DNA from: Picochlorum sp. SENEW3
Taxonomy: Eukaryota
Length of the DNA: 64,000 nt
Direction of reading: 5' to 3'
NCBI GenBank assembly: GCA_034226945.1
Contig: CP120454.1
Span: 434,001-498,000, forward strand
This document shows positions 30,285 through 60,442 of the stretch, one piece after another (position 1 is the stretch's first letter; each line of letters starts with the position of its first letter). The translations under genes were made by a program, and so were the position numbers. The notes below the pieces were generated by a model. It was not told the origin of the DNA, did not search any database, and saw nothing but the letters and a program-made list of their open reading frames with translations.

Positions 30285-30623
30285 GAAGGAAGGTCTTTGG
30301 TGGCAAGATGGAATCTTTCTCAAATACAAACGAAAACAAAATATTTCTTTTGAGGCCTGCATAAAACACGTCTTTTCATGATGATCCCTTACTTATCGGC
30401 AAGTTCTTATGTGTGGCACGCTCAGTTTGTGGATGTATGTCAATTTCGGACAAGAAAGTGCTTTCTTTGCTGGAACAGTCTAGTTTACTAGACTACTCGT
30501 ATACACTAATATCTGGCCAGGAACTCCATGGAGTACTGGACTGTCATCTTGTCTACTTTCTTCTTTCCTGCTTTCTTGATGTTGATAGAAATTTCAAGTC
30601 TTTAAAATTTAAAATCTTTGTAT

Positions 30624-33600
30624 TCATTTATTAGTTGTGCTAGCCAGGCTGTCCAAAAAGCCTGATTTTGATCTCTTCGAACTTCTTGAAATTTTATCCG
30701 ATCGTTTCAAAATTCGGGACGATTTAACTTTGCTATGGTAGACCTCTCTCGTTCGTATTGGCTCTGCTGGGAGGCCACACCACACCGATCCTTCTGCAAG
30801 CGAGTCTCCTGGGAGGACCATGGAAGCTGGCATCACTCTAGAGCCATCATTCATGACGGTGTATGGCATCACCCTCGCTCCTTCCTGGACCCAGCATCTC
30901 TCTCCCAGGCAGACGCTGTGATAGATGAACTTTTGGTATTCCATGTAATGTCCATCTAGTTTGCCACCTGATTCGATGACAGAGTCCTCGCCAATTTCAA
31001 TAAGGCCTGATTCTAATGGCTGGGGACACAGCAGTATTGCCCCTCTCCCAACAGTGAAGCCCAGAATTCTGTAAATGTAAACTGCAAATGGCGTTCCATG
31101 AAATGCGTCTATGTTAGCCTCTGCAATATTAAAATATGAGTGTATCAATAGCGAGGGAATGTCAAAAACTGATACTGAGCCGTGCTTCCAATGCTTTCTG
31201 ACTTGAGATGCTTCCAAGAGGAGTCGAAGATAGAGGACAGCCAACAAAGATCCTACACCAACCATGACTACGTAGGCGACCGGAATGAGCCACCAGTACG
31301 TCTGCTTTAACAATGAAGCAACTACTGCTAAAGGAATCCACAGGAGCACTGGGGCTATGGGGCCTATCGCCATCAATGTAATGAGGGTTGCAGGAGTGTG
31401 CCACCATGGTAGTGATAGGCTACTGTCTACGTGCGACTGAGAATGTGATATAATGTAAGGCACATCAATTCCGTTTTCCATAGCATCTTGGAGGTGTGAT
31501 CCTTCAGTAGGGCGTATAACAGTGTAGTCCAAGCTACCTTGGGCTCTTACGTTGTCTTTAAGGACTCGACCTCTACATATGGGTGTATCATTTCCCACAA
31601 CAGCCCTAGCGTGTATTTCGCATCCTGGGTATAATACAGACGCATTGCCAATGGTTGACTCTTCTTTCAACACAATTTTCTCGACAATACCATCGGCGTT
31701 GGTCGCAAATATGACACTATCAGAGCCGGAGCAAACTTTGTCACTGACCTCGAGTGCATCAAATTCAACAATACTGAGGCCCCCAATAAATACGTGCTTC
31801 CCAACAGATGCGCCTAGTGCTTTATACAACCATGCCATTAATGGCGTCCCAGTGAGCAATATTTGTAAGTCGTGCCACATGGGCGATTCTACTTGCCTGC
31901 GTAAGACGGAGTAAACAAAGAGAGAGTATGTACTCCTTGCCACATTCACTCCTGGTTTCAAGCGTCCAACGAATATCCACTTCCATGTGAGAACCATGAT
32001 CATTTGGAGGAATACTCCTAAAGCTGGGTTCAGCCATCCATAAAGTGCTGTGAATAAAGCAGAGAATTCTACAAGATTCCACGCAATCACTGAGCCACTG
32101 GGGGAAACAAGTGGGTCGCCATCCCCTATGATGGAGTATATGATGAGGAGGCACAAGGCTACAATCGGGACCTCTGAGAGAGATTCCAAGAAATGATTCG
32201 TTATTCCGCTCACAAGTGACCATAATGCACCTAATTTTTCCTCTGCGCAAAAATGGGGAAAGTCAGAGAGGGGTCCATTGACAGGCTCATCTCCAGGATG
32301 GGATCGAGATGCATGGGGCTTCAAATTATGGTTGTCAGGGATTGCAGTACCAGCAGTCACCACAGCTCGATGTCCAATGTGGCAATATTCACCTATATCT
32401 ACCTCTGAGAGGATCAAGACTGGTCGGCGTCCCAAATACCCTGCTGGAGTAACAAATGCACCAGTTAATGATGCTTCGCTGTAAATGCAACATCCCTTTC
32501 CCAAGCTGAGCAAATCAAAGTCACATATATTCACACTATCGACGAGTACACGAGTAGGAGATTGAACTTTGGCTCCCAAAGCCTTTAGAACATACGACAG
32601 GAACGGAGTTCTAAGTATTGCGGGGAAGAATGTGCTGCCTGCTGCTTCTTGGAGTGCTCTTAGGGTGACCCAGCGGGCATACATCCAACCATACAGTGGA
32701 TATACACCCGGCTTCAAATTTCCTACCAAAGCCCACTTCAATCCAATCAATAGAAGAGCATATCCAAATAAAGCCCCGACCTTCATAGACGGCCAAATCA
32801 GAACCAGCCACCACGAACTGATCACTGTTCGCAACTCAAAGACACCAACAAGCAAAGAACCCCAGATAACTGGCACCATAACCATTGTCAGAGACAACAT
32901 TATATACTGAAGAATCATGTATATCCAATAGGGAATTGCAGGCGTTGGAACGACTTCTGACGAGGCCAGGAATAATTCCTTATCAGCTTGAAGCCTGTCT
33001 GTTGGTTTTACTGCTGCATGAGTCGCAGAGGAAGCATCCTGCTGATGCTTCAAAACATCAATCGATTGAGCCATGCCTCGAATGGTTTTTCTCTGATAAA
33101 CAAGTGTAGCGGGGAGGCTTTCAATGTCAAAATGGACCCTAAGGCGGGAACTCAAAATACCTGCCTGCAGTGAGTTGCCCCCCAACTCAAAGAAGTTGGC
33201 CTCAACCGAAATATCGTCAGGATAATGCAAAATCTCTTTAAGGGTGTCCGCAACTACTTCTTCTGTACTTGTCTGGGGAGGAATGTACCAATTTTCTAAG
33301 GTTTGGGCGGCATCCTTTTCTTGTCTTGCAATCCTTTCCAACTCCAAGGCATTTATTTTTCCAGTTGGAGTCAATGGAAAGCTCTGCAGACTAATGATAC
33401 TTGAAGGAACAGCTGCAGGGATTAATTTCGAAGCACAGAAACCACGAATATCTTCCTTATTCACGTTCGCCGGGGTTACAAATGCCACAAGCTGCTTTGA
33501 CTTTGTTGAATTGACTTGGAATGCTAATGCGTGAGCCAGGTCAACCTCTGGGTGAGACTGAACGACATGCTTGACTTCAGATACCTCTATTCGTACTCCA

Positions 33601-36600
33601 TTAATTTTGATTTGCCCATCAGATCGTCCGTGGAAATATAAAACGCCATTCTCATCCCGAGACACCAAGTCACCTGTCTTGTACAGGACTCTATAAGAAT
33701 CAGAAACTGGAGAATCATCGCTGAAAAATGGATTTGGAATAAAGTGCTTTTTAGTCTGCTCTTCATTGTTAATGTATCCTAAAGCTGTCCTTGGACCACT
33801 CAGCAAGAGCTCTCCGATGGTGCCAATCGGTTTTTGCTCGTAGATATTGTCAGGACTGACAACATATGCCCTCACATTGGGATCTGGAGGGCCAAGTGGT
33901 GCATCTGGCACTCCAGGCAGCATGAGGGCTGCTGTTGCAGAAACTGTAAATTCTGCTGGCCCATACGCATTATATATCCCATCTGATAGGCCTGGAATTC
34001 TCTGAAGTTCTGCAGCCACAGAGCATGGCAAAGGCTCTCCCCCAAAAACCAAAGTCCGAAGTTTAAGGGAATTTCTCCTCTTGACTAGTTCTGGTGCATA
34101 CAGCTCAATTAAAGATGGGACCTGATCCATGAGTGTAATGCCATGTTTTTCACATATTTCTGCGACTGCTCGAGCATCAGTCTCGAGTCCTGATGGAATA
34201 ATGGAAAGACAGGCACCACAGGCTAGAGCTGCAAGAATGATGGCAATGTGAGGGTCAAAAGCTGGTGACGTGGCTAGAGCGAAGACATCTTCTCTTGATG
34301 TGTGGAACAAATCAATATAAGATCCACAAACTATATCCACCAGTCCACCATGGGTCAGCACGACCCCCTTGGGCTTCCCAGTAGATCCAGAAGTAAAGAG
34401 AATACAGGCTTGATCCTTGTGAGTCATCGCATCGGCTCTCAGGGTTGCAAAATCACTGGGTGTGTCAGCCAAGGCATCTTGATGTTCTGATATGACTGAA
34501 GGGAGCCCTTTCAAGCTATCACACGATACCACAATTGTGGATACTCCTTTTTCCTCTGCCTTTTTTCGAAGATCCTCAGAATCTTCACGAGCTGAAACGA
34601 GAATAAGATGTGATCTAGAGCTCGTTAAATACTCCGAGATTCGCCCCAGGGGAAGCCTTGGCTCAAGAGGAAGATATACCCCACCTAGGAAGAAAATGGA
34701 CAGCATGCTGATCACCAACTCCTCTGATCTTGACGCATAAACAGCAACGCACTTTCCGTGAAGCCCCTCAGGATGCTTTCTTCTCATATCCCGTATAGTA
34801 TAATAGACCATCATGAAAACTTCATGATATGTGTATCTTCTCTGATCACAAAGCAAGCAAAGTGAATGGGGATGCTGTTTCACTTGAGCATAGAATTGGT
34901 CATGCAGAAGTGGCATCTCAAAGTACTTCAGACATTCTGGGCCTCTAGAGAGCATGTCAATCTCAATTTTTGCAGATTTGGATAATATATTCATCTCCTC
35001 TAGCGGTATGTCCATGCCATGTGTGCATATCGAGTCTAACAGTGTCTTATAGCAGTCAACAAGTCGGTTTATCTTGGCAGCACTCAAAATTGATGTCGAG
35101 TATTCTACATCGAGATACGCACTGGACTTGTTATGGGCATGAACTTCAAAAGTGATATCAACTTGCGAAATTTGTGGATCAGGCAAACTGTAGGGTGATG
35201 TCATGATGTCGCTTCCAAAGTCTATTCTAGGTTCTTCTTCCTCCAAATACTGAAACAAGACCTGCGAACAAAGGGGTAAGAATGCATCCTGATTTTGTTA
35301 TCGAGCACCAAAAGACATATAATAAGCACATACCTGGAATACTGGATTGAAAGGACTTCCTGGAGGCACATTCGCAGCCGATACTATCTCAGGGAAGGAC
35401 AATTTCCCATGTTTTATACCCTTCATAATCTTCTCATGTATTCTCTGTGTAAATGTACCAAATTTCTCTTTCTTGTTGATTTCACCTCGTATAGGAAGTG
35501 GAGAGACAAAATACCCTATTAAATTCTGGATTGACGCAATGTCTCTCATTGCAGCAGGCAAACCAATCACCACATCATCACTATTTGACCATTTGGAGAG
35601 GAGGACATGAAAGGCTGCCAAAAACAGAGCGTTGAGCGAAACTCCAATCTTGCTGGCTGTCTTTGCTAAAACAACTATCTGAGATTCTGATAAAAACTCA
35701 AATCGAGAGCAGATACCCTCCAAACCACTTAGATGGGATCTGGAAAAGTCCAAGGGAAAATCAAGCCTCTCTGGGATGCCTTTGAGCTCTTGAGTCCAAA
35801 ATGCGATGTGGTCACGATTGTTCTGAGTATCCAGCCAAAGAATATAATCTGCATATTGACACCCCAAAGGATCCATCGGTGCGCTCCAATACGCGAGGCT
35901 CAACTCATCACACAGAATTCCAAGCGACCATGCATCGCTTACAGCATGATGGGTGACTATTATCAAGTATTGCTGCCCTGGGGTATGCTCGGCAGATACG
36001 AGCGTCGCTCGAAGGAGAATATCACTTTGGAAGTCAAAATAATGGTTTACTTCGCACTTCATAACCCTCTTGAGCTCCTGAGCATTCTCTACAGAAACAC
36101 GAGAAAGCCCAAAAGAACCATGTATCAGCTGGCCAGAAAGCGTCCCATCTGGCTTCACATGATATACTGTCCTTAAAATTTCATGCCTGCTGACGATAGT
36201 CTGGAAAGCATTCTCTAAAAGATTAACATTCACATTATCAGAGATTGCAAAGCATAGACTCAAATTGTATGCTCCTGCAGCCTCTTTTCCTGCAATTGAA
36301 GCGACTGTCCACATCTGCTGTTGGAATTTCCCCAGAGGCCTCTTGGAGTCATTCCATACATGGGGAGTCAATCTATTTGCAGAGTCATTGTTTTCTTCCA
36401 GAAGCGGTTCTAAAGCCTCTGCAAAATCTCGCAGTGTTCTATGTTTGTATAACAGGGCCACTGGAATAGGTTCTGATAGACCCAATGCACTCTGAATCTC
36501 TGCATTAATCTTAAAACCCTTGATGGAATTACCTCCAGCTGCAAAGAAATCGCTCGAATCCTTTATATGCGATCCAAGTGCACTTTTCCAAAATGTTTTC

Positions 36601-38315
36601 ACGATAGCTACATGTGGATTCACTTCCTCGCCTTCTTCTTCATCCAGTATTATGTTGTCCTCTGGAACAGTCAATGCATCAATGCGCACCTTTCCAGTTG
36701 AGGCTACTGGAAAAGATTCAAGCGGAACTATACAAGCAGGTATTGCAGCTTGCACCAACCTTTCCGAGCATTTCTTATAAAGCAACGAGGGGTCAATGTG
36801 CTCTGGTGTGACCCAGGCCACGAGGGCTTTCTCTCCCATGCGCGGACGCACATCAACCGCTGCTCCAGTGACTCCCTCAACTGATACAAGGAGAGATTCA
36901 ATCTCACCCAACTCTATTCGGACACCCCGTATCTTCACCTGCCTATCTATTCGTCCGTGCAGTTCCAATTCACCATTCTCCATCCAGCTCACGAGATCTC
37001 CAGTTCTGTACGATGTTGCAAAATAGGACTGCACCCAAGTCTCATCAATTTTATCCCTTATCATGTCGAATGCGGGGTTTGACACAAACTTTTCCGCAGT
37101 TTTCTTGGAATCTGATAAATACCCCAAAGCAACTCGAGGGCCGGCCACCAACAACTCACCGCGCACGCCGGCATTTGAGATGACTTTGCCTGTCTCAGGG
37201 TCCACCACACAACAGAACACATTTGGGTCTGGGGGACCAATACTGATACGTGCATCATCTGGCCTCACAAATGAATGCGTCACAGTAAATGTCTCTGTAG
37301 GTCCATATCCATTTATACATCCTCGAGGAGATAAATTTGGGAGAAGGCTATACAATGACGATGCCAAATTTGATGGAAAGTTCTCTCCCATGCACTCCCA
37401 CTCTCTGATTGTAGTTATTGCTCGAGGCATTTTCTCCATCTCACCAACGTATGCCACTGCCAGAGTCGGAAGAGTATGTACAATAGTCACAGAGTGCTTC
37501 ACAACCAAGTCCAACCAATATACCGGGTCGAGGTGACCATGAGGTTTACACATGACCAAAGCTGCACCGGATATAAGAGGCACAAATACTGGGTGCACAT
37601 GAGCATCAAACGATATCGAGTACGACAGCTCAAACACATCCCTATCAGGATCAACGTTTAATCGCTCTGCGTGATTATGCACGGCATCGATCAACCCAAT
37701 ATGAGGGTAGCACACTGGCTTTGGCTCTCCAGTGGTGCCACTGGTAAAGATGATGTACGCTGCCCCATCTTTGCTCCCTCCGTTCTCATCGACTGGCAAC
37801 ATCGCCGCATCTTCCAGACTATCATAAAATCTATCATCAACACGCACATGCTCACACGGATCAGAAGAAGCATTGCAGATATCATGTGCCTCTGATTCCA
37901 GCCCTTTATCAAAAGAAGAAAGAATCAGGGAAAAACCTGCAATTGAGGCACATTTTTTGTGCCTTTCCTTGGGGAAATCTGGATCCAGAGGAACATATAC
38001 ACATCCAGAATGGTGAACAGCCAATATTGTTGCCACAAGTACCGCAGATCTTGGCATATACACGCCAATCCTTGGGCTTGTTGCATCCGCAACTTTTCCC
38101 TTCTTCTGGGACTGCCGCTCTGTTGTCCTGCTCAGTGCCTTCTCAATCAGGCATGAAACTTCCCTTGCTTTTACAGAAATCTGACCATATGAAATCGTTG
38201 AGCCATCCCAATCAATCACACATCGAGCTTTTGGCTTTTGGGTCGCCAGTCGAGCAAACGTGACATGCAGTTGGCACTCCTTCAAACGGTCAGGGCGGAG
38301 GCACAGGCACTCCAT
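30624..38315 (-). CDS. Non-ribosomal peptide synthetase A-T-C-A-T with a Pls/PosA-type membrane terminal region, about 2539 aa (intron 35333-35262)
   Basis: Two complete A domains (FTSGTTGEPK / FTSGSTGKPK, YGPTE / YGPAE, YRTGD / YKTGD, TGK). T domains FFAAGGNS and FFELGGNS. C domain HHAVSD. The GTATGT...CGCAG intron restores PVFQ|VLFQ. Three tail repeats xTP....LG.xV, two with KW..VG.LKPG, plus TM helices and hexapeptide-like runs. Confidence 0.9.
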
Positions 38316-38546
38316 TCTTAGATATCGTATACTAACATGGATGAAGAAATCAAATCGAAGAAATGGTAGCTATGCAGGGAGCGAATCTAAACCCCTTGGG
38401 ATCCTCTTCTTGGATTGTCCCATGGCAAGGTGCGTAACGTAATAATAGCCATCTCAAGATTGGATGAAGTGATCACAACAATGGCAATTACAATCCTCAC
38501 GTGATATCTAAATGGAACAAAATGAGCAAAAAAGAGATACTTTCTA

Positions 38547-40067
38547 CTACAGGTGAATGGAATGAGACTTGAAGGGTTCAGACCCCGAATCTGTACTATT
38601 ATGAGATGCCATTTCATTGATCTGCTCTTTCAAGTTTGCCAGCTCTGCTAGCACTAATTGTTCAAAGGTAAGACCCCGTGGGCGTACAGAAGCTCTCCGA
38701 GGAACACCTCCTTCCTCGCACATCATGTCCCTTTCATGTTGCTGGACAAATCCGTCCTGAATATCGCTCGAGCCATCCACGTATCCCACCGGCGCCCCTT
38801 CATACCGCTGTTCATATATATCTTCATCATTGAGATATCGGTCCTTCTTTGACATTCCTTTACTTACCATTTTTTTCAGGGATCTATGAAGGCGGGACTT
38901 GGGTATCAAGAATGGGAACATGGTCCGGAACCACGCCTTTTCCAACAAGGATGGCTTTGCATACAGCCACAACCTGTACACAATGACGAGAAGAATCCCA
39001 AACCCAACAGCAGATCCTAAAATCACCCATAGGCCTGATACTTCATTCCACGTCACTACTGTATACTTTTCTTCTACATTATCAGTCTTGCATGATGCAA
39101 GCTGGACATCAATGTATTCTTCCTGCAGATTCTCAATCTCCCCTGCTTCAAGTAGCTGTCTCATACGAATATTAAACACATCCATGAATTCCGCATTCTG
39201 CCAGGTCGATCGAGGAAACCCTACGGTCTGATCAAAAACATCGATTTGTGAGCCCACAATCATCGTCTGACAATTATCTGCGTCCAAACTCCTCAGCGCC
39301 GAATCATCCAACACCACCGCAGACACCAATCCATTCACCAAATCCTCAGCCATCTTTCTCTCATCAGCTACATCACCCCACGGGTACGGTACTATTTGCA
39401 CCTTGTACTTGTCTCGCAAGTCCTCTTCATACCCAGACCACGATGCGACAGCCCTCCCCGGCAAATCTTTGACACTACGAATGCTATTATTCAACTGACT
39501 GACTGTCAAATTCGCCGTCAGATTTGCAGAATACAGTGCCATCAGAATGAACACAACAAACGACCACACAAGCCCGCTCTGCAGCGTGGCAACAGAAAAC
39601 CTCAACCCCTTGTCAATCCTCTCCTGCCACGGACCCATACCAGCCGGCGCAATATCACACTCCGTGGTATTCACCAACAAATTCATCATCTCATCCCACT
39701 CCAAACACCGCCACTCGATCATGTCGTACGTCCACCCCATGAGAGGCATCATTGCTTTGAACAGGTCAATCTCATACCCTGACCAATACACTGGATCAAG
39801 CCCCACACAGCGCACAGCAGGCGTCCATTCTGACGTACACACCCTCAATTTAGTATTATTAGGAAACCAGGGAATAGAACCCACTGGGGCAGGAGACACA
39901 TCTTCCTCCTCTGGAGCAGGAGCAGGAGCAGCCGCGGGGTCAGGAGCAGGAGCCTCCCCCTGACCATACACAGCATGCTGTGTACACAACAGAACCAGTA
40001 CTATGAATAGTCTATTCTTCACCATCATGGCAGCCTTAAAGAGCGAATGAGGTACTTTGTTATTCAA
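38547..40067 (-). CDS. Ionotropic glutamate receptor-like protein lacking M1 and the pore loop
   Basis: Signal peptide, S1 (GYEIDLF...ERIDKGLRFS), M3-like LYSANLTANLTV, S2 and M4 (VSGLWVILG). S1 runs straight into M3. Confidence 0.75.
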   Translation of the reverse strand: MNNKVPHSLFKAAMMVKNRLFIVLVLLCTQHAVYGQGEAPAPDPAAAPAPAPEEEDVSPAPVGSIPWFPNNTKLRVCTSEWTPAVRCVGLDPVYWSGYEIDLFKAMMPLMGWTYDMIEWRCLEWDEMMNLLVNTTECDIAPAGMGPWQERIDKGLRFSVATLQSGLVWSFVVFILMALYSANLTANLTVSQLNNSIRSVKDLPGRAVASWSGYEEDLRDKYKVQIVPYPWGDVADERKMAEDLVNGLVSAVVLDDSALRSLDADNCQTMIVGSQIDVFDQTVGFPRSTWQNAEFMDVFNIRMRQLLEAGEIENLQEEYIDVQLASCKTDNVEEKYTVVTWNEVSGLWVILGSAVGFGILLVIVYRLWLYAKPSLLEKAWFRTMFPFLIPKSRLHRSLKKMVSKGMSKKDRYLNDEDIYEQRYEGAPVGYVDGSSDIQDGFVQQHERDMMCEEGGVPRRASVRPRGLTFEQLVLAELANLKEQINEMASHNSTDSGSEPFKSHSIHL

Positions 40068-41561: not shown

Positions 41562-42950
41562 ATGCTGATTCATGGTCACCATCCAAGATTCACCAGTGTC
41601 GTAGCAACAGCGACAAAAGTCTCGTCCCAAGGCCAATGGAGGGACAAGGCAAAGCCCATCGAATCTGGTAGTATGTATCCAGCCAAGGAGAATTGCTCAT
41701 CCTGTGGGTTATGCGATACCTATTTTGTCAGTCATGTCAAGGAGGCTTGCGCATTCCTTGGAGATTCAAATATCATGACATTAGAAGAGCGAGTTCACGG
41801 TCGACAGAGGGATTTGGATGATCCTGATGAAGTAATATTTGGGGTTATACAGGAAACGTTTAATGCGAGGGTGGATCCACCCATCAAAGGTGCTCAGTGG
41901 ACTGGAGTGGTGACTGGCATTGCTGTTGAAATGTTGACTCAGGGCAAGGTGGATGCGGTTGTGTGTGTGCAGTCTCAAGAGGAGGATGAATTTGCTCCTC
42001 GTCCCTTTGTAGCGACATGTGTTGAGGATATTATCGCTGCCAAGGGGGTGAAGCCGTGTCTGTCACCCAATCTGAATGTTCTTGCTACTGTGGAAGCATT
42101 GGATGTGAGGCGGTTGCTTTTCATCGGTGTAGGGTGTCAGGTGGAGGCGTTGCGTGGTATTCAACCGTATTTGAATGTGGGTGATGTCTATGTTATTGGG
42201 TTGAATTGTACGGATAATGGAGAACGGGAGAGCTTGAACAAGTTTTTGAATGCAGCTTCGGAGGATCCAGATACGGTGACGAATTACGAGTTTATGCCAG
42301 ATTATCGAGTGCATTTGAAGCATCGAGATGGTCATTATGAAAAAGTACCGTACTTTTGCCTTCCTGCGCAGGAATTGAGCGATGTCATTGCGCCTTCCTG
42401 TTTGAGCTGTTTCCAGTATCCAAATGATTTGGCGGATCTCACGGTTGGGTATATGAAAACACCGTATGATTCAAAAACCCCTATGAACGAGCATTTTCAG
42501 AGTGTCCTTGTGAGGAATGAGAGGGGAAGGGAATTGATTGATGCGATTCGATCCGTGTCAAAATTAGAATCTCAACCACCATATGGTCATGAAGGTGTGC
42601 TCAAAAGACAGAGTCTTGTGGTGCAGACTGTGGCGGCGGATGATGAGGCAAAGTGTGGTGAGGGGCCAACAAAGGGAGCGCCGCGATGGTTGGGGGAGGT
42701 GCTCGCATGGGTTCTGTCTGGACTGGGTCCACGTGGGATTGACTTTGCAAAGTATTCAATAGAGTATCATTATCTGAGAAATTATATTCATGTGATGAGG
42801 CACTGGAATGGCAAAGCTGCTGAGAAGCACATTCCAGAGTATGTGTATAGAATTGTCAAGTACTATGATGAGAAGACTGGAGGTCTTATTTCGAAACGAG
42901 CATCATTACAGGCACCATTTCCTGGTGCGAAAACCAAAGTGAAAAAATAA
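41562..42950 (+). CDS. HCAR: 7-hydroxymethyl chlorophyll a reductase (FrhB-like)
   Basis: YPAKENCSSCGLCDT, GAQWTG, GVGCQV, NCTDNG, VPYFCLP and APSCLSCF motifs. Confidence 0.92.
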   Translation: MLIHGHHPRFTSVVATATKVSSQGQWRDKAKPIESGSMYPAKENCSSCGLCDTYFVSHVKEACAFLGDSNIMTLEERVHGRQRDLDDPDEVIFGVIQETFNARVDPPIKGAQWTGVVTGIAVEMLTQGKVDAVVCVQSQEEDEFAPRPFVATCVEDIIAAKGVKPCLSPNLNVLATVEALDVRRLLFIGVGCQVEALRGIQPYLNVGDVYVIGLNCTDNGERESLNKFLNAASEDPDTVTNYEFMPDYRVHLKHRDGHYEKVPYFCLPAQELSDVIAPSCLSCFQYPNDLADLTVGYMKTPYDSKTPMNEHFQSVLVRNERGRELIDAIRSVSKLESQPPYGHEGVLKRQSLVVQTVAADDEAKCGEGPTKGAPRWLGEVLAWVLSGLGPRGIDFAKYSIEYHYLRNYIHVMRHWNGKAAEKHIPEYVYRIVKYYDEKTGGLISKRASLQAPFPGAKTKVKK

Positions 42951-44083: not shown

Positions 44084-45757
44084 TTGAAAGTAAATATGGC
44101 ATATCGGTTGGTAACGTATCACCAGGATATGCTCATGTCTCGAGCGGTTGTGAGACAATTATCGATTGGGTCTAAAAACAAACGGTATCACTCTGGTTCA
44201 ATACAGAGAGTGTCATGTATGACAAATGACTGGTATGGATATGCGAGGAAAATGCACCTGAATCCAAGGGTGGGGCTGTCGTATGGGTCTGGTCTGTGTA
44301 CACAAGAGGACAGGGGTTGGCCTCTGGTTGCAACACGACACGTGCCCTCACGTTGTGGTGAGAGAATGCTGAGAATGGCATCCTCCTCTATCGGTGACGA
44401 TGACGGTGGTTCTTCTTCTTCCGCTTCTTCTTCTTCTTCTTCTGGTGGTGATGTTTCTTCTTCTCCTTCTTCTCCCTCTCCTGGTGTGACAGGTGGGGGT
44501 CCAAAGTCTCCTCCAGAAGGCTTTGCAACCTTGGAACGGGTTATTCAACAAAGAATGGGTGGAGGCGAAGGCAAGCAGTGGAATGAAGTGGATGGCTGCT
44601 GGGTGCTGTACCCTCCAGAGTCGGATCAAGGCCGTGATATGAGCAAGGTGTCTTGTTTAGTGCATTTTGTGGGGGGTGCGTTTGTGGGGGCTGCTCCACA
44701 GGTGGCATATAAGAGGATTCTCGAAGGATTGGCTGCTAGAGGGGCACTGGTGGTCGCAACACCATATGCGACGGGATTTGACCATCTTCGGACAGTGGAT
44801 GAAGTTTATTTCAAATACTCTCGCTGTGTGAAATCCCTGGGTCCAGGTATCCAAATGTTGCCAACGTATGGTTTGGGACACAGTCTTGGGTCTCTCATCC
44901 AAGTATTGGTATGCTCTAGATATGTAGTGCCTCGAGCGGGCAACATTCTGATGAGCTTCAACAATAGACCTGCAACAGATTCCATTCCATTTCTGTCCCC
45001 ATTTATTGCACCATCTGCAAGAGCATTAGGCCCTATATTATCCCAATTAGCAACGTCTCCGTTACGATCAGGTGTGGAGCAGTGGATTGATATATTCAAG
45101 GGAGCTTCACCCGAGACATTCCGTCAGGTATTGCCATTATTGGAGCAGCTCACGCCAATCTACTTGGATGTTGCAAATGGGACTGAAGAATTCACCCCTC
45201 CTCCAGAGGAGACGAGAAAGATGATAAAGGATGGGTATGCTATTAATAAGAATCTGTTGTTAAAATTCTCGGACGATTCCATCGACGAGACTCCAGTTCT
45301 TGCAAGTGTCCTGCAAAGCTCGCCACTGTGGAACCAAGGTTCTTTGGAATTGATGGTGAAATCTTTACCCGGAGACCACGCAAGGCCTATGCAGCAAGAT
45401 TTGAGCGAATTTTCACCTGAATTTGCTGAATTCACCTCTCAGAGACTCTCAGAATCAGAGACATTTTGGAACTCTGTTGGCTCTCTTGCAGAACAAGCAA
45501 CAGGTCTTCCCCCCATTGCCAAGGAACAGTTGACTGGACTCGCAAAGACAGCATCCAGTATGACATCCATGTTTGGTGATGCTGTAGGGGCGTCTCCTCG
45601 TCGCTCAGGAGAGGAAAAGCAAGCACTGTCCATGGATGCCCTGGTGGATGAAATTGGGTCTTGGATGGGGCTGGCATCACAAGAACAAACAGAACCGCGA
45701 GCTTTGCCATCGCCATCTGAGAGCAGTAGCAATAATAGTCCGTTGTCCAGTCCCTAG
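44084..45757 (+). CDS. DUF1350-like alpha/beta-hydrolase-fold plastid protein (start uncertain)
   Basis: VHFVGGAFVGAAPQ, GLGHSLG, MSFNN, LLKFSDDSIDET and LPGDHARP motifs. Confidence 0.8.
   Translation: MKVNMAYRLVTYHQDMLMSRAVVRQLSIGSKNKRYHSGSIQRVSCMTNDWYGYARKMHLNPRVGLSYGSGLCTQEDRGWPLVATRHVPSRCGERMLRMASSSIGDDDGGSSSSASSSSSSGGDVSSSPSSPSPGVTGGGPKSPPEGFATLERVIQQRMGGGEGKQWNEVDGCWVLYPPESDQGRDMSKVSCLVHFVGGAFVGAAPQVAYKRILEGLAARGALVVATPYATGFDHLRTVDEVYFKYSRCVKSLGPGIQMLPTYGLGHSLGSLIQVLVCSRYVVPRAGNILMSFNNRPATDSIPFLSPFIAPSARALGPILSQLATSPLRSGVEQWIDIFKGASPETFRQVLPLLEQLTPIYLDVANGTEEFTPPPEETRKMIKDGYAINKNLLLKFSDDSIDETPVLASVLQSSPLWNQGSLELMVKSLPGDHARPMQQDLSEFSPEFAEFTSQRLSESETFWNSVGSLAEQATGLPPIAKEQLTGLAKTASSMTSMFGDAVGASPRRSGEEKQALSMDALVDEIGSWMGLASQEQTEPRALPSPSESSSNNSPLSSP
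44410..44475. repeat. (TCT)n coding microsatellite (poly-Ser)
   Basis: Interrupted TCT runs inside the DUF1350 ORF. Confidence 0.85.
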
Positions 45758-58051: not shown

Positions 58052-58906
58052 AGACATGCAATACTATTGAGGAGAGAGTTTTGATCATTCGTTTCACATT
58101 TCATACAATCACAGTAGGGCTTCACTGGTATTTGGTATCTCTCTGCCCAGGTGTTGTCTATGGTCAATCATGATGAAGAGACATCATGCCGTTCCCACGG
58201 CGTGGAAGCGTTTGGGTCCGTCCAATGAGAGAGAAGAGAATTGATGATGTTGGTACCGTTTCCTTGGATATTTTTCCCATACACGAGTGCATGCCCAGCC
58301 TACGTGACGCAGGACTTGAAGAACATGGACAAGTTACTGTGATGATGGGCTCGTGCGCAGTCTGCAGTCGACAACAGAAGAAGAAGACGAAGAAGAGAAC
58401 ACACACTGTACAGGTTTCACGTGTGTTCGTACTACCACTGTATTTTTTCCGCATTATTTCCATTCCATTTTTTTTATTTGTAGTATGCTCCGAAACCACT
58501 CTCCCAGTCAAACACAGTTCTTGACCGAGAGCAAATGTCAATTCTGTGGTAGAGCTGGACGAATCTTCTTCGACACAGGACCGGATAAGCCGTGGGTACC
58601 CGTCTCGTTTGCTCCCTCTTTAATTCATTATTTTGCCGCAATATCGTGCTCAAAGGTCAATTTTTGTTTCTAATTGACGAATTTGTAGTACATTATCCCT
58701 GTGTGGTGCTGAAACGGTTGTTTCCTACGAGCAAGGGCCGGAAACGTCTTCGTCGTCGAGAACAGTAGAAGACTCGAATCCACTCTTGGTTTGATTATTT
58801 ACGGATATTATTCCACGTTTTTGTACTTGCAAACGGTAGGGATTGATTGCAACGGTGAAAGGTTGTCGTAGAAGTAACGAGAAGAATCTAGACCTTGGAC
58901 GCGACA

Positions 58907-60442
58907 ATGGCAAACACAGTGACAGCTTGCGTGAATACACGCACTACAGTGACAAGAAAGAATATGGTTGTTAATAATGGAGTATTGCGGGGCCGAGTGG
59001 TGATGCCTGTGAAGGGTCTTTGCGGTCGACGCGCGGCTCTTCCCATGCGAGTGTCTGCTGCCGCCTCTGGCTGCGATTTCGAGGGTGCTCTCGGGTCCTC
59101 ATCTGGGGATTCCGCACAGAAAGAATTGCAGATTATGAATTTGTCCGTGCCAACGACCGGCATGGCCAAAGGGCTCGGTTCTTCGGGTGGTGCCACATTG
59201 CAGAGGTCCAAGCTCAGCTTGAAGCAGAGTCAGCAGCAGAGTGCCCCGAAACTGGATGACGGAATGGGAGGAGGAGGCATTGGGAAGGGAATTTTCAATG
59301 GTGGAGGAGGTGATGGTGGCGATGATGGTGACGATGATGATTACTTTGGAGAGGACGATGGTGATGGTGATGGCGATGATGATGGCTTCTTCAGAAAGGT
59401 GTTCCAGGAGCTCTATGAAGCCAAAGCTATTGCAGCGGTTCTTCAGGAGTGGTACAGGACAATGGGTGATTTGCCACTGATTATTAGGCAGGCTGCAGAG
59501 ATGGGAATGTTTTCTAGTGCTGCATTAGTGAGATTCATGTCCATGGATGTGAGGCCAAATGTGACAAGAATGGTCACTCGATCTCTTCCACCTGATGTGT
59601 CTAGAAACGTCGTTGGTCGCTTGATGGCGGATCCAGCCTTCATGCAAAAGCTTGCTTTGGAGCAGATGATTACGATTGGAGCATCTTTGGTATATGAAGC
59701 AAGGGTCAGAGGAGAGAAATTCTGGAAGGAGATTGACCTGGTTGCGGTGAACACTCTCTCGTTGGCTGCCGCCAATGCTGCTGTTGTATATCTTGTAAGC
59801 CCAACACGTGCAGCCTCAGCTCCTGCAAGGTATGAATGGCAGAACATGCTCTCCAAATTGCCAAATAATGTATTTGAAGGAACAACTCCGCTTAGATCGT
59901 ACTCCAACAATTCTAGAATTGCATCATTCTTCGTCAAGGCAGCTCAATTGAGTGGTGTGGGCCTTGTGGCGGGTGGATTACAAAGCTCATTGTCAAAGGC
60001 TGTTGTTGCTCTTCGCCAGAAATCAGACCCATCCTTTGTGCCCTCCATGAAGATTCCAGAAATTCAGCAGAGTGCCCTTGGCATGGCAGCAACATGTGGT
60101 GTATTTGCAAATGCTCGCTACCAAATCATAGCCGGATTCGATAGATATCTGTTTGAAAATGCTAATTATCTTTGGAGTTATCTGACTCTGAGCGGACTTC
60201 TCAGAGCTGCTAGCACAGCCATTGGAGATCAGACCCGCCAGTTCATGTGTGGGCTTCCAGCACCACCTTCAATGGCATCTGATGCAGAGAGAAGAATGGC
60301 ACGTGCTAGACAGCAGGCATTAGCGCAACAGAGAATGATTGAATCCTATAGAAGAACAGGTAGCACAGGAATCAAGAAGAAAAAGTCAAAGAAGACTGCT
60401 GGGTTTGAGATGGGAGTCGGTCCAACTCCTGCTGCAGCCTAG
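58907..60442 (+). CDS. RETICULATA-related (DUF3411) plastid envelope protein
   Basis: Gly/Asp-rich linker, RLMADPAF, RGEKFWKEID, LPNNVFE and FANARYQIIAG motifs. Confidence 0.88.
   Translation: MANTVTACVNTRTTVTRKNMVVNNGVLRGRVVMPVKGLCGRRAALPMRVSAAASGCDFEGALGSSSGDSAQKELQIMNLSVPTTGMAKGLGSSGGATLQRSKLSLKQSQQQSAPKLDDGMGGGGIGKGIFNGGGGDGGDDGDDDDYFGEDDGDGDGDDDGFFRKVFQELYEAKAIAAVLQEWYRTMGDLPLIIRQAAEMGMFSSAALVRFMSMDVRPNVTRMVTRSLPPDVSRNVVGRLMADPAFMQKLALEQMITIGASLVYEARVRGEKFWKEIDLVAVNTLSLAAANAAVVYLVSPTRAASAPARYEWQNMLSKLPNNVFEGTTPLRSYSNNSRIASFFVKAAQLSGVGLVAGGLQSSLSKAVVALRQKSDPSFVPSMKIPEIQQSALGMAATCGVFANARYQIIAGFDRYLFENANYLWSYLTLSGLLRAASTAIGDQTRQFMCGLPAPPSMASDAERRMARARQQALAQQRMIESYRRTGSTGIKKKKSKKTAGFEMGVGPTPAAA

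Follow-up and report, generated by a model that had tools for sequence, protein, structure and literature searches.

Synthetases of the Pls type are, to our knowledge, known only as single-module makers of cationic homopolymers, and polymers of this type serve as food preservatives and are studied as antimicrobials. Here we describe a gene of the green alga Picochlorum sp. SENEW3 whose product carries a Pls-like membrane tail behind a two-module non-ribosomal peptide synthetase (NRPS). The gene occupies the minus strand of positions 30624-38315 in a stretch of 64,000 nucleotides (nt) of contig CP120454.1 (positions 434,001 to 498,000), which we call the window. Its product is most likely a two-module NRPS that is released by a divergent Pls-like membrane acyltransferase domain.

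The available portions of the study of PosA, the delta-poly-L-ornithine synthetase of Acinetobacter baumannii, portray Pls-type enzymes as consisting of one module, with one adenylation (A) and one carrier (T) domain (PMC10522769; see also the available part of PMC13291983). They report that the C-terminal domain of Pls is needed for polymer formation, and they model the PosA tail as six bent helices and three packed left-handed beta-helices with approximate threefold symmetry (PMC10522769). This modeled architecture matches our own model of the window tail, whereas PosA itself is unlike the window enzyme in being single-module and ornithine-specific, with a homopolymer as its product (PMC10522769). 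The PosA sequence network kept only proteins of 1100–1800 amino acids (aa), and because of this size limit two-module forms fall outside the survey; the eukaryotes it names are fungi, Metazoa, Alveolata and Amoebozoa, green algae not being among them (PMC10522769). The epsilon-poly-L-lysine synthetase of Epichloe festucae offers a eukaryotic nuclear gene of the Pls kind, a likeness judged by description only, and differs from the window enzyme in its product, a lysine homopolymer (from the part of PMC7179176 that is available).

Within the green algae, an antiSMASH survey reports a cluster of the non-alpha poly-amino acid (NAPAA) type in Trebouxia (PMC11523091), and other such surveys count NRPS clusters across the Trebouxiophyceae, Picochlorum included, the architecture not being described in the portions of these texts that are available (PMC12366059, PMC10794256). 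Full-text literature searches returned no Pls-type tail behind a condensation-containing module and no account of this Picochlorum gene, though the surveys’ supplementary tables may list it. The original prediction, which was made from the DNA letters alone, had put forward the product, an alternating amino-acid polymer, as a class not known to be described in chlorophytes. Genes of this kind are not wholly new to that group, since NAPAA-type and NRPS clusters have already been flagged there, but we did not find the architecture described.

Along the protein, the domains run in the order A1-T1-C-A2-T2, where C is a condensation domain, and are followed by a tail of 765 aa that contains six transmembrane (TM) helices. 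The features lie in the window as follows.

30624..38315, minus strand: whole gene, with its start codon at 38315-38313 and its stop codon at 30626-30624; 2539-aa product once spliced.
36690..38093, minus strand: adenylation domain A1, residues 75-542, specificity code DAHHEMGTVK.
36411..36602, minus strand: carrier domain T1, residues 572-635, GGNS with Ser597.
34944..36341, minus strand: condensation domain C, residues about 659-1100, with the intron inside it and HHAVSD at 789-794.
35262..35333, minus strand: spliceosomal intron of 72 nt, phase 0, inside the condensation domain, with GT at 35333-35332 and AG at 35263-35262.
33357..34892, minus strand: adenylation domain A2, residues 1118-1629, specificity code DPADVGAVSK.
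33066..33257, minus strand: carrier domain T2, residues 1663-1726, GGNS with Ser1691.
32247..32921, minus strand: tail repeat 1, tail residues 1-225, comprising TM1, TM2, LKWALVGNLKPG, helices and beta-helix 1.
31422..32246, minus strand: tail repeat 2, tail residues 226-500, comprising TM3, TM4, WKWIFVGRLKPG, helices and beta-helix 2.
30627..31421, minus strand: tail repeat 3, tail residues 501-765, comprising TM5, TM6, helices and beta-helix 3, with R618, E637 and H658.

Pfam recognizes AMP-binding, AMP-binding_C, PP-binding and Condensation in exon 1 and AMP-binding, AMP-binding_C, PP-binding and Hexapep in exon 2, with E-values of 1e-55 and 2e-60 for the A domains, 1e-7 and 5e-10 for the T domains and 3e-57 for the exon 1 part of the C domain. 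Both A domains contain the core motifs A3 (TSGTTGEPK and TSGSTGKPK), A7 (YRTGD and YKTGD) and A8 as well as the A10 lysine, while GGNS begins at 594 and 1688 and HHAVSD at 789. In having A, T and C domains in colinear order, each with its core motifs intact, the protein matches a modular type I NRPS. Neither Pfam nor NCBIfam gave a match in the protein to a thioesterase, a reductase or a terminal condensation domain for release. The domain order, both GGNS sites, the HHxxxD motif, the A-domain core motifs and the missing thioesterase and reductase had all been read from the DNA in the original prediction, and the domain searches and motif inspection agree with it. The A-T-C-A-T core with its intact motifs is like that of AusA, the aureusimine synthetase, to whose NCBIfam model NF047350 the protein is a partial match. 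Two-module NRPSs such as AusA are nevertheless soluble and end in a reductase or thioesterase, and the window protein reaches 332 bits against a cut-off of 2500.

The tail has the build of a Pls/PosA terminus. Hydropathy yields three pairs of hydrophobic segments, six in all; each third of the tail can be aligned with the other two, and the motifs KW..VG.LKPG and (G/R)TP....LGA.VG are common to them. An AlphaFold2 model of the tail, built with 47 sequences (mean pLDDT 85.7, pTM 0.88), consists of a TM hairpin, helices and a left-handed beta-helix (LbH), threefold. With the Hexapep and LbH matches, hydropathy and model thus give the three pairs of TM helices and the three segments of ~180 aa, hexapeptide or beta-helix in character, that define the Pls/PosA tail. 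The original prediction of a tail of ~750 aa, made of three repeats of TM helices, motifs and hexapeptide-like runs, is borne out by hydropathy, repeat alignment and model alike. Pls of Streptomyces albulus and the Streptomyces Pls/PosA family share this layout, an A-T module feeding a tail of ~700–765 aa that contains three pairs of TM helices and three beta-helices, and like the window enzyme they have no thioesterase or reductase domain. They differ from the window’s A1-T1-C-A2-T2 enzyme in being bacterial and single-module with no C domain, and Pls-type tails are 22–25% identical to the window tail.

Structural comparison connects the beta-helices to acyltransferases. Beta-helix 3 (tail residues 562-728) matches LbH acyltransferases at Z 11–13.7 (3ect 13.7, 3srt 13.5, QdtC 12.8), the matches including maltose O-acetyltransferase, QdtC, WlbB, AntD and VioB, and beta-helix 2 (tail residues 307-471) matches GlmU, SAT, LpxA and LpxD at Z 8–10.7. 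The first Foldseek match for the tail is the LpxD-ACP complex 4ihg. A search of the PDB by sequence returned LbH proteins only (3ixc, E 8.3e-5) and no solved Pls-type tail. The left-handed beta-helix fold of the LbH acyltransferase superfamily is therefore present, and within that superfamily LpxD uses a carrier-protein thioester as donor and an amine as acceptor. The LbH acyltransferases (LpxD, QdtC, WlbB, AntD, VioB) are unlike the window tail in being soluble homotrimers, whereas the tail holds three unlike beta-helices in one chain with a TM hairpin before each.

TIGR02353, the equivalog-domain model of the Pls/PosA terminal domain, is curated with a cut-off of 423.1 bits. Taken by itself, the tail reaches 186.5 bits against it (E 7.6e-55, in three stretches), and exon 2 reaches 181.4 bits (E 2.6e-53). 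Classical tails score 493–790 bits (7 of 7), intermediate ones 204–246 (3 of 3), and those of the clade to which the window tail belongs, here named clade C, 131–187 (4 of 4). On these scores the tail is a distant relative of Pls/PosA that stands outside the curated TIGR02353 family. Hence the original assignment of the tail to a TIGR02353/Pls-type region holds as homology but not as membership, given the score below the cut-off and the separate clade.

Phylogeny places this clade apart. In a FastTree of 149 tails, with condensation domains called by phmmer, clade C comprises 19 rows (support 100, stem 0.9) and includes 10 of the 12 rows that contain a C domain; its other rows are eight N-terminally cut fragments and one A-T-tail ORF (open reading frame) that fills its short contig. 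The classical clade of 90 rows, to which the named bacterial Pls/PosA belong, has no C domain by phmmer in any row (0/90), and one member, P0231, shows a sub-threshold Pfam C remnant. A quick IQ-TREE run on 48 rows splits off clade C and the classical clade, with an SH-aLRT of 100 each. Both trees set clade C apart with strong support, and its tails follow condensation-containing modules.

Among 1.84 billion cluster representatives, 1490 relatives of the tail were found at E ≤ 1e-3 and 32 at E ≤ 1e-30, the nearest being Picochlorum-like sequences at 92–99%. P0005–P0007 (2515–2521 aa, 66–68% tail identity) have the A-T-C-A-T-tail order in a single ORF and are intronless at the site of the window intron. 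Relatives at ~50% tail identity have the order C-A-T-tail, and those at 28–31% include P0283 (2710 aa, A-T-C-A-T-tail), P0146 (C-A-T-tail) and P0132 (5192 aa), in which four C-A-T modules precede a clade-C tail and the first and fourth A domains both read DPMNIMAVMK. The domain order of the window enzyme thus recurs in P0005–P0007 and P0283, in contrast to the four modules of P0132. Further clade-C relatives (P0011, P0013, P0146) have a C-A-T module directly before the tail. P0011 (2369 aa) has two successive condensation-like domains before its A-T-tail; the first of these may be an epimerization domain, and the ~50% relatives may accordingly use a D-residue. The Picochlorum protein has no such domain. 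Three of the relatives at 49–50% (P0134, P0137, P0292) are short ORFs of 486–612 aa on contigs of 10–67 kb, which hints that they are eukaryotic too because short ORFs of this kind resemble intron-split genes under a prokaryotic caller.

Named eukaryotes appear outside clade C, on intermediate and outlying branches: Diplonema ambulator has a C-A-T-tail protein, and the jakobid Stygiella incarcerata has a polyketide synthase (PKS) fused to the tail (4380 aa). Across the fused Pls-like tails (among them P0258, P0154, P0160, P0174, P0251, P0208 and P0233) the partners are PKS, C-A-T, carboxylesterase, phosphopantetheinyl transferase, FMN dehydrogenase, reductase and DUF418 domains, and the Pls-like tail looks like a portable exit module. 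A search for fused forms of 2705–5000 aa gave no scoring match, and P0132 lies above that range. A language-model search of the ESM Atlas gave mostly eukaryotic nearest clusters, diatoms being the commonest, which we treat as a lead only. In 185,579 prokaryote species genomes, narrow pattern scans (the algal-clade tail alignment and P0014) confirmed no relative, a result that argues only weakly for bacteria lacking clade C, and metagenome contigs gave a single locus, the 92% relative L001.

Conservation was counted in three groups (17 distinct rows of clade C, 40 intermediate and 90 classical, about 147 tails). K62, W63, R83, D136, R618, E637 and H658 are near-invariant in all three, and every one is kept in the window tail and common to it and the Pls/PosA family. 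H658 is found in 17/17 clade C, 39/40 intermediate and 89/90 classical tails; the corresponding counts are 17/17, 38/40 and 88/90 for E637 and 17/17, 38/40 and 83/90 for R618. Numbered along the whole protein, R618, E637 and H658 are R2392, E2411 and H2432, and the His codon lies at 30950-30948. The near-invariant His occurs in repeat 3 only, within beta-helix 3, and because no other repeat has it, this suggests one catalytic center in the pseudo-trimer. Its predicted position is at the interface of the three packed beta-helices.

The tail is also the part of the protein that has changed least. Measured against L001, the ratio of non-synonymous to synonymous substitution rates (dN/dS) is 0.073 for the tail (764 codons) and 0.10 for the part before it (333 codons), with a dS of 0.57. 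Identity to P0005 (2521 aa) is 67.5% in the tail, 54% in A1, 42% in C, 54.5% in A2, 37% in T1 and 49% in T2. By these comparisons the tail is the best conserved part of the protein, and the gene is under strong purifying selection.

In Picochlorum this is a single nuclear gene, expressed and spliced. Exactly the interval 30624-38315 that the original prediction had given is filled by two ORFs of the minus strand (35298..38315 and 30624..35258). Removal of the intron, which reads GTATGT...GCAG from 35333 to 35262, joins exon 1 (994 codons) to exon 2 (1545 codons) to give the 2539 aa, and at none of its 2539 positions does this product differ from the GenBank entry WPT13320.1 (Picochlorum sp. 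SENEW3), annotated as “Tyrocidine synthase 3”. A 2539-aa “hypothetical protein” of Picochlorum sp. BPE23 is colinear with it at 96% and 98% identity and gapless at the junction. The same gene is cut into 1059 + 1265 aa in the P. renovo gene models, and prokaryote-style gene callers cut it at the intron into 1005 + 1544 aa. The gene model is therefore already public, though misnamed.

Sequencing data agree with the splice. In run X3, one contig of 7641 nt (depth 36) spans the whole coding sequence (30618-35259 + 35332-38329) with exactly 72 nt missing, and the ends of the joint, CT..AC on the plus strand, are GT..AG on the gene strand. That X3 is RNA is a guess, for which the exact GT..AG removal speaks and also the gene-sized contigs, since a neighboring gene lies on a separate one of very different depth; because 174 of ~7640 positions differ from the window, X3 comes from a related strain. 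Contigs from X1 (35289-35736) and X2 (34873-35302), both probably DNA, read through the intron boundaries. At the protein level, the junction NPVFQ|VLFQY in the condensation domain aligns without a gap to relatives that are intronless there. Run X7, an aquatic metatranscriptome, holds 27 pieces that are 90–99% alike along the gene (window 30400-38600); these place a related alga with this gene in the sample, and none of the pieces contains a spliced joint, though one diverges exactly at the intron with a loose end at 35263. The 72-nt spliceosomal intron that was proposed to join the two ORFs is thus confirmed by the contig and the gapless junction. Transcripts ending before 35262, which would have meant two genes, are not what X3 shows, and the view of a nuclear gene rather than a bacterial contaminant is upheld by the intron together with eukaryotic green-lineage neighbors.

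Specificity codes were extracted by a procedure that was checked on a Rhizobium protein whose code is given in PMC10522769. Classical A domains have codes such as DAESIGTVVK, DLEDIGTVVK and DMEHNGTVTK, with Glu239 in every one, and the Streptomyces Pls/PosA-family A domains sampled read DAESIGTVVK, again with Glu239. The diamino-acid signature of Asp235 plus an acidic residue at 239 (D-x-E...) is found in neither A1 nor A2, and both have Asp235 and Lys517. Codes in relatives include DPADLGTVVK and DVHHCMGVVK. Position 278 of the A2 code is acidic (D/E) throughout the algal subclade but not in P0132, P0283 and P0146; such a residue is perhaps a faint sign of a basic side chain.

From these features we propose how the enzyme might work. 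By standard NRPS logic, A1 and A2, with Asp235 and Lys517 in place, would each load an alpha-amino acid onto T1 and T2, and the C domain with its HHAVSD motif would join the two residues into aa1-aa2-S-T2. The three beta-helices would pack in the manner of a trimeric LbH acyltransferase on the cytosolic face of the membrane, a placement that follows from the even number of TM helices before each repeat. There, H2432 with Glu2411 and Arg2392 of repeat 3 could act as the general base when an amine attacks the T2 thioester, so that the dipeptidyl unit would leave by amide-bond formation and not by hydrolysis. That the tail catalyzes this attack at the cytosolic membrane face is a view we hold with modest confidence, on account of the LbH acyltransferase fold, the conserved His/Glu/Arg set and the published requirement for the domain in Pls. 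As to the acceptor, repeated transfer and a single transfer to another amine seem about equally likely, each a tentative proposal, and other forms of release make up the rest.

Repeated joining, as the original prediction had it, would turn dipeptidyl units into an alternating (aa1-aa2)n or a comb-like isopeptide polymer, exported or held at the membrane. This is possible but rather doubtful, and we regard as just as tentative the wider proposal that the enzymes of the clade are polymerases for sequence-defined hetero-poly(amino acid)s, with an alternating or comb-like dipeptide polymer in this case. Every relative characterized in the available account polymerizes (PMC10522769), the family-wide His/Glu/Arg are kept, and no other part of the protein is as constrained as the tail. 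The D/E at A2 code position 278 across the algal subclade could furthermore mean that a side-chain amine is available, and a product that retains an acceptor-type amine can re-enter the reaction. Weighing against it are several replacements in the tail at positions that classical tails hold nearly constant, E378, D400, E591 and D662 being present in the Pls-type tails and lost here.

Position 378: Glu in 76 and Gln in 14 of 90 classical tails; Phe in 15/17 of clade C and in the window.
Position 400: Asp in 86/90 classical tails; Ser or Gly in clade C; Ser in the window.
Position 591: Glu in 87/90 classical tails; varied, mostly Leu, in clade C; Leu in the window.
Position 662: Asp in 87/90 classical tails; Phe or Tyr in clade C; Tyr in the window.
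Position 656: Gln in 89/90 classical tails; Asp in clade C.
Position 704: Lys in 75/90 classical tails; Pro in 17/17 of clade C.

The four acidic positions typical of poly-cation synthetases are thus lost, and because three of the replaced residues sit beside H658, the acceptor site appears to differ from that of the known polymerases. The same side of the balance includes the A2 code, which has no diamino-acid Glu239 and so speaks against a cationic-polymer mechanism, and the score under the curated cut-off, by which function is not transferable through family membership. Clade C is moreover a class with no biochemically characterized member; it also contains a four-module enzyme, an unlikely monomer donor, and the wider non-classical half has a PKS fusion, whose product would have no amine to polymerize. 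On the other proposal, the tail would act as a membrane N-acyltransferase and hand the dipeptide over once to a different amine, such as a lipid head group, a polyamine, an amino sugar or a free amino acid. N-acyltransferases share the LbH fold, LpxD with its dependence on an acyl carrier among them; the fusion partners of non-classical tails include PKS, carboxylesterase, acyltransferase and reductase domains; and the acceptor-side residues are unlike those of polymerases. This proposal is no firmer than the last, as no acceptor-making or lipid gene adjoins the locus, the clade offers no characterized member to support it, and the very high conservation across all 765 aa of the tail exceeds what a simple transfer needs. 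It is improbable that the tail leaves the last bond unformed and mainly anchors or exports, with the dipeptide leaving by hydrolysis or cyclization: some release route is needed where thioesterase and reductase domains are absent, and six TM helices could form a conduit, but the His/Glu/Arg core is kept across the tails of all three groups, the domain is required for Pls catalysis in the available account (PMC10522769), and the beta-helix parts, not the TM parts alone, are strongly constrained. An artifact is extremely improbable, be it a pair of separate genes, bacterial contamination or a pseudogene in decay; the two pieces given by prokaryote-style callers and by the P. renovo models are all that speaks for it, and it is ruled out by the spliced single contig, the identity to the GenBank protein, the gap-free junction, the eukaryotic neighbors, a dN/dS of 0.07–0.10 and the intact motifs.

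The window as a whole belongs to the nuclear genome of a compact green alga. Its G+C content is 43–48% throughout, and the surrounding ORFs are of eukaryotic green-lineage type, namely SMC, MIF4G/MA3, ERCC1, TFIIIC, GATA, RETICULATA-related, DUF1350 and an FrhB-type reductase. Genes lie very close together throughout, and the neighboring genes in the window include no biosynthetic partner. Directly upstream on the same strand, at 38547-40067 (minus strand), is the gene for a protein resembling ionotropic glutamate receptors (Lig_chan E 2.3e-10, plus SBP_bac_3), so that a channel of the amino-acid-gated type adjoins an amino-acid-condensing enzyme; we note the adjacency only. Plastid-related nuclear genes lie at 41562-42950 (plus strand; FrhB-type reductase, as in 7-hydroxymethyl chlorophyll a reductase), 58895-60442 (plus strand; RETICULATA-related) and 44084-45757 (plus strand; DUF1350).

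At the level of annotation, this analysis corrects the public names of the gene (“Tyrocidine synthase 3”, “hypothetical protein”) and its split into two models in P. renovo. On the reading we consider most likely, a two-module NRPS released by a divergent Pls-like acyltransferase domain, the gene shows an ordinary multi-module assembly line, in an alga that grows fast, whose exit is a membrane domain of the Pls kind. This domain is part of an entire clade, so far unstudied, in which relatives with two and with four modules occur. If the dipeptide is transferred once, the tail would be a new membrane-bound release mechanism for NRPSs. If the tail polymerizes, it would be a way in which sequence-defined poly(dipeptide)s arise in nature; no such synthetase is known to date, and the polymer would be the first of the NAPAA type in a photosynthetic eukaryote. 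A natural poly(arginyl-histidine) is reportedly made by a fungus, and we know of no synthetase for it; a polymerizing tail in Picochlorum would serve as a template for finding the makers of such dipeptide-repeat polymers.

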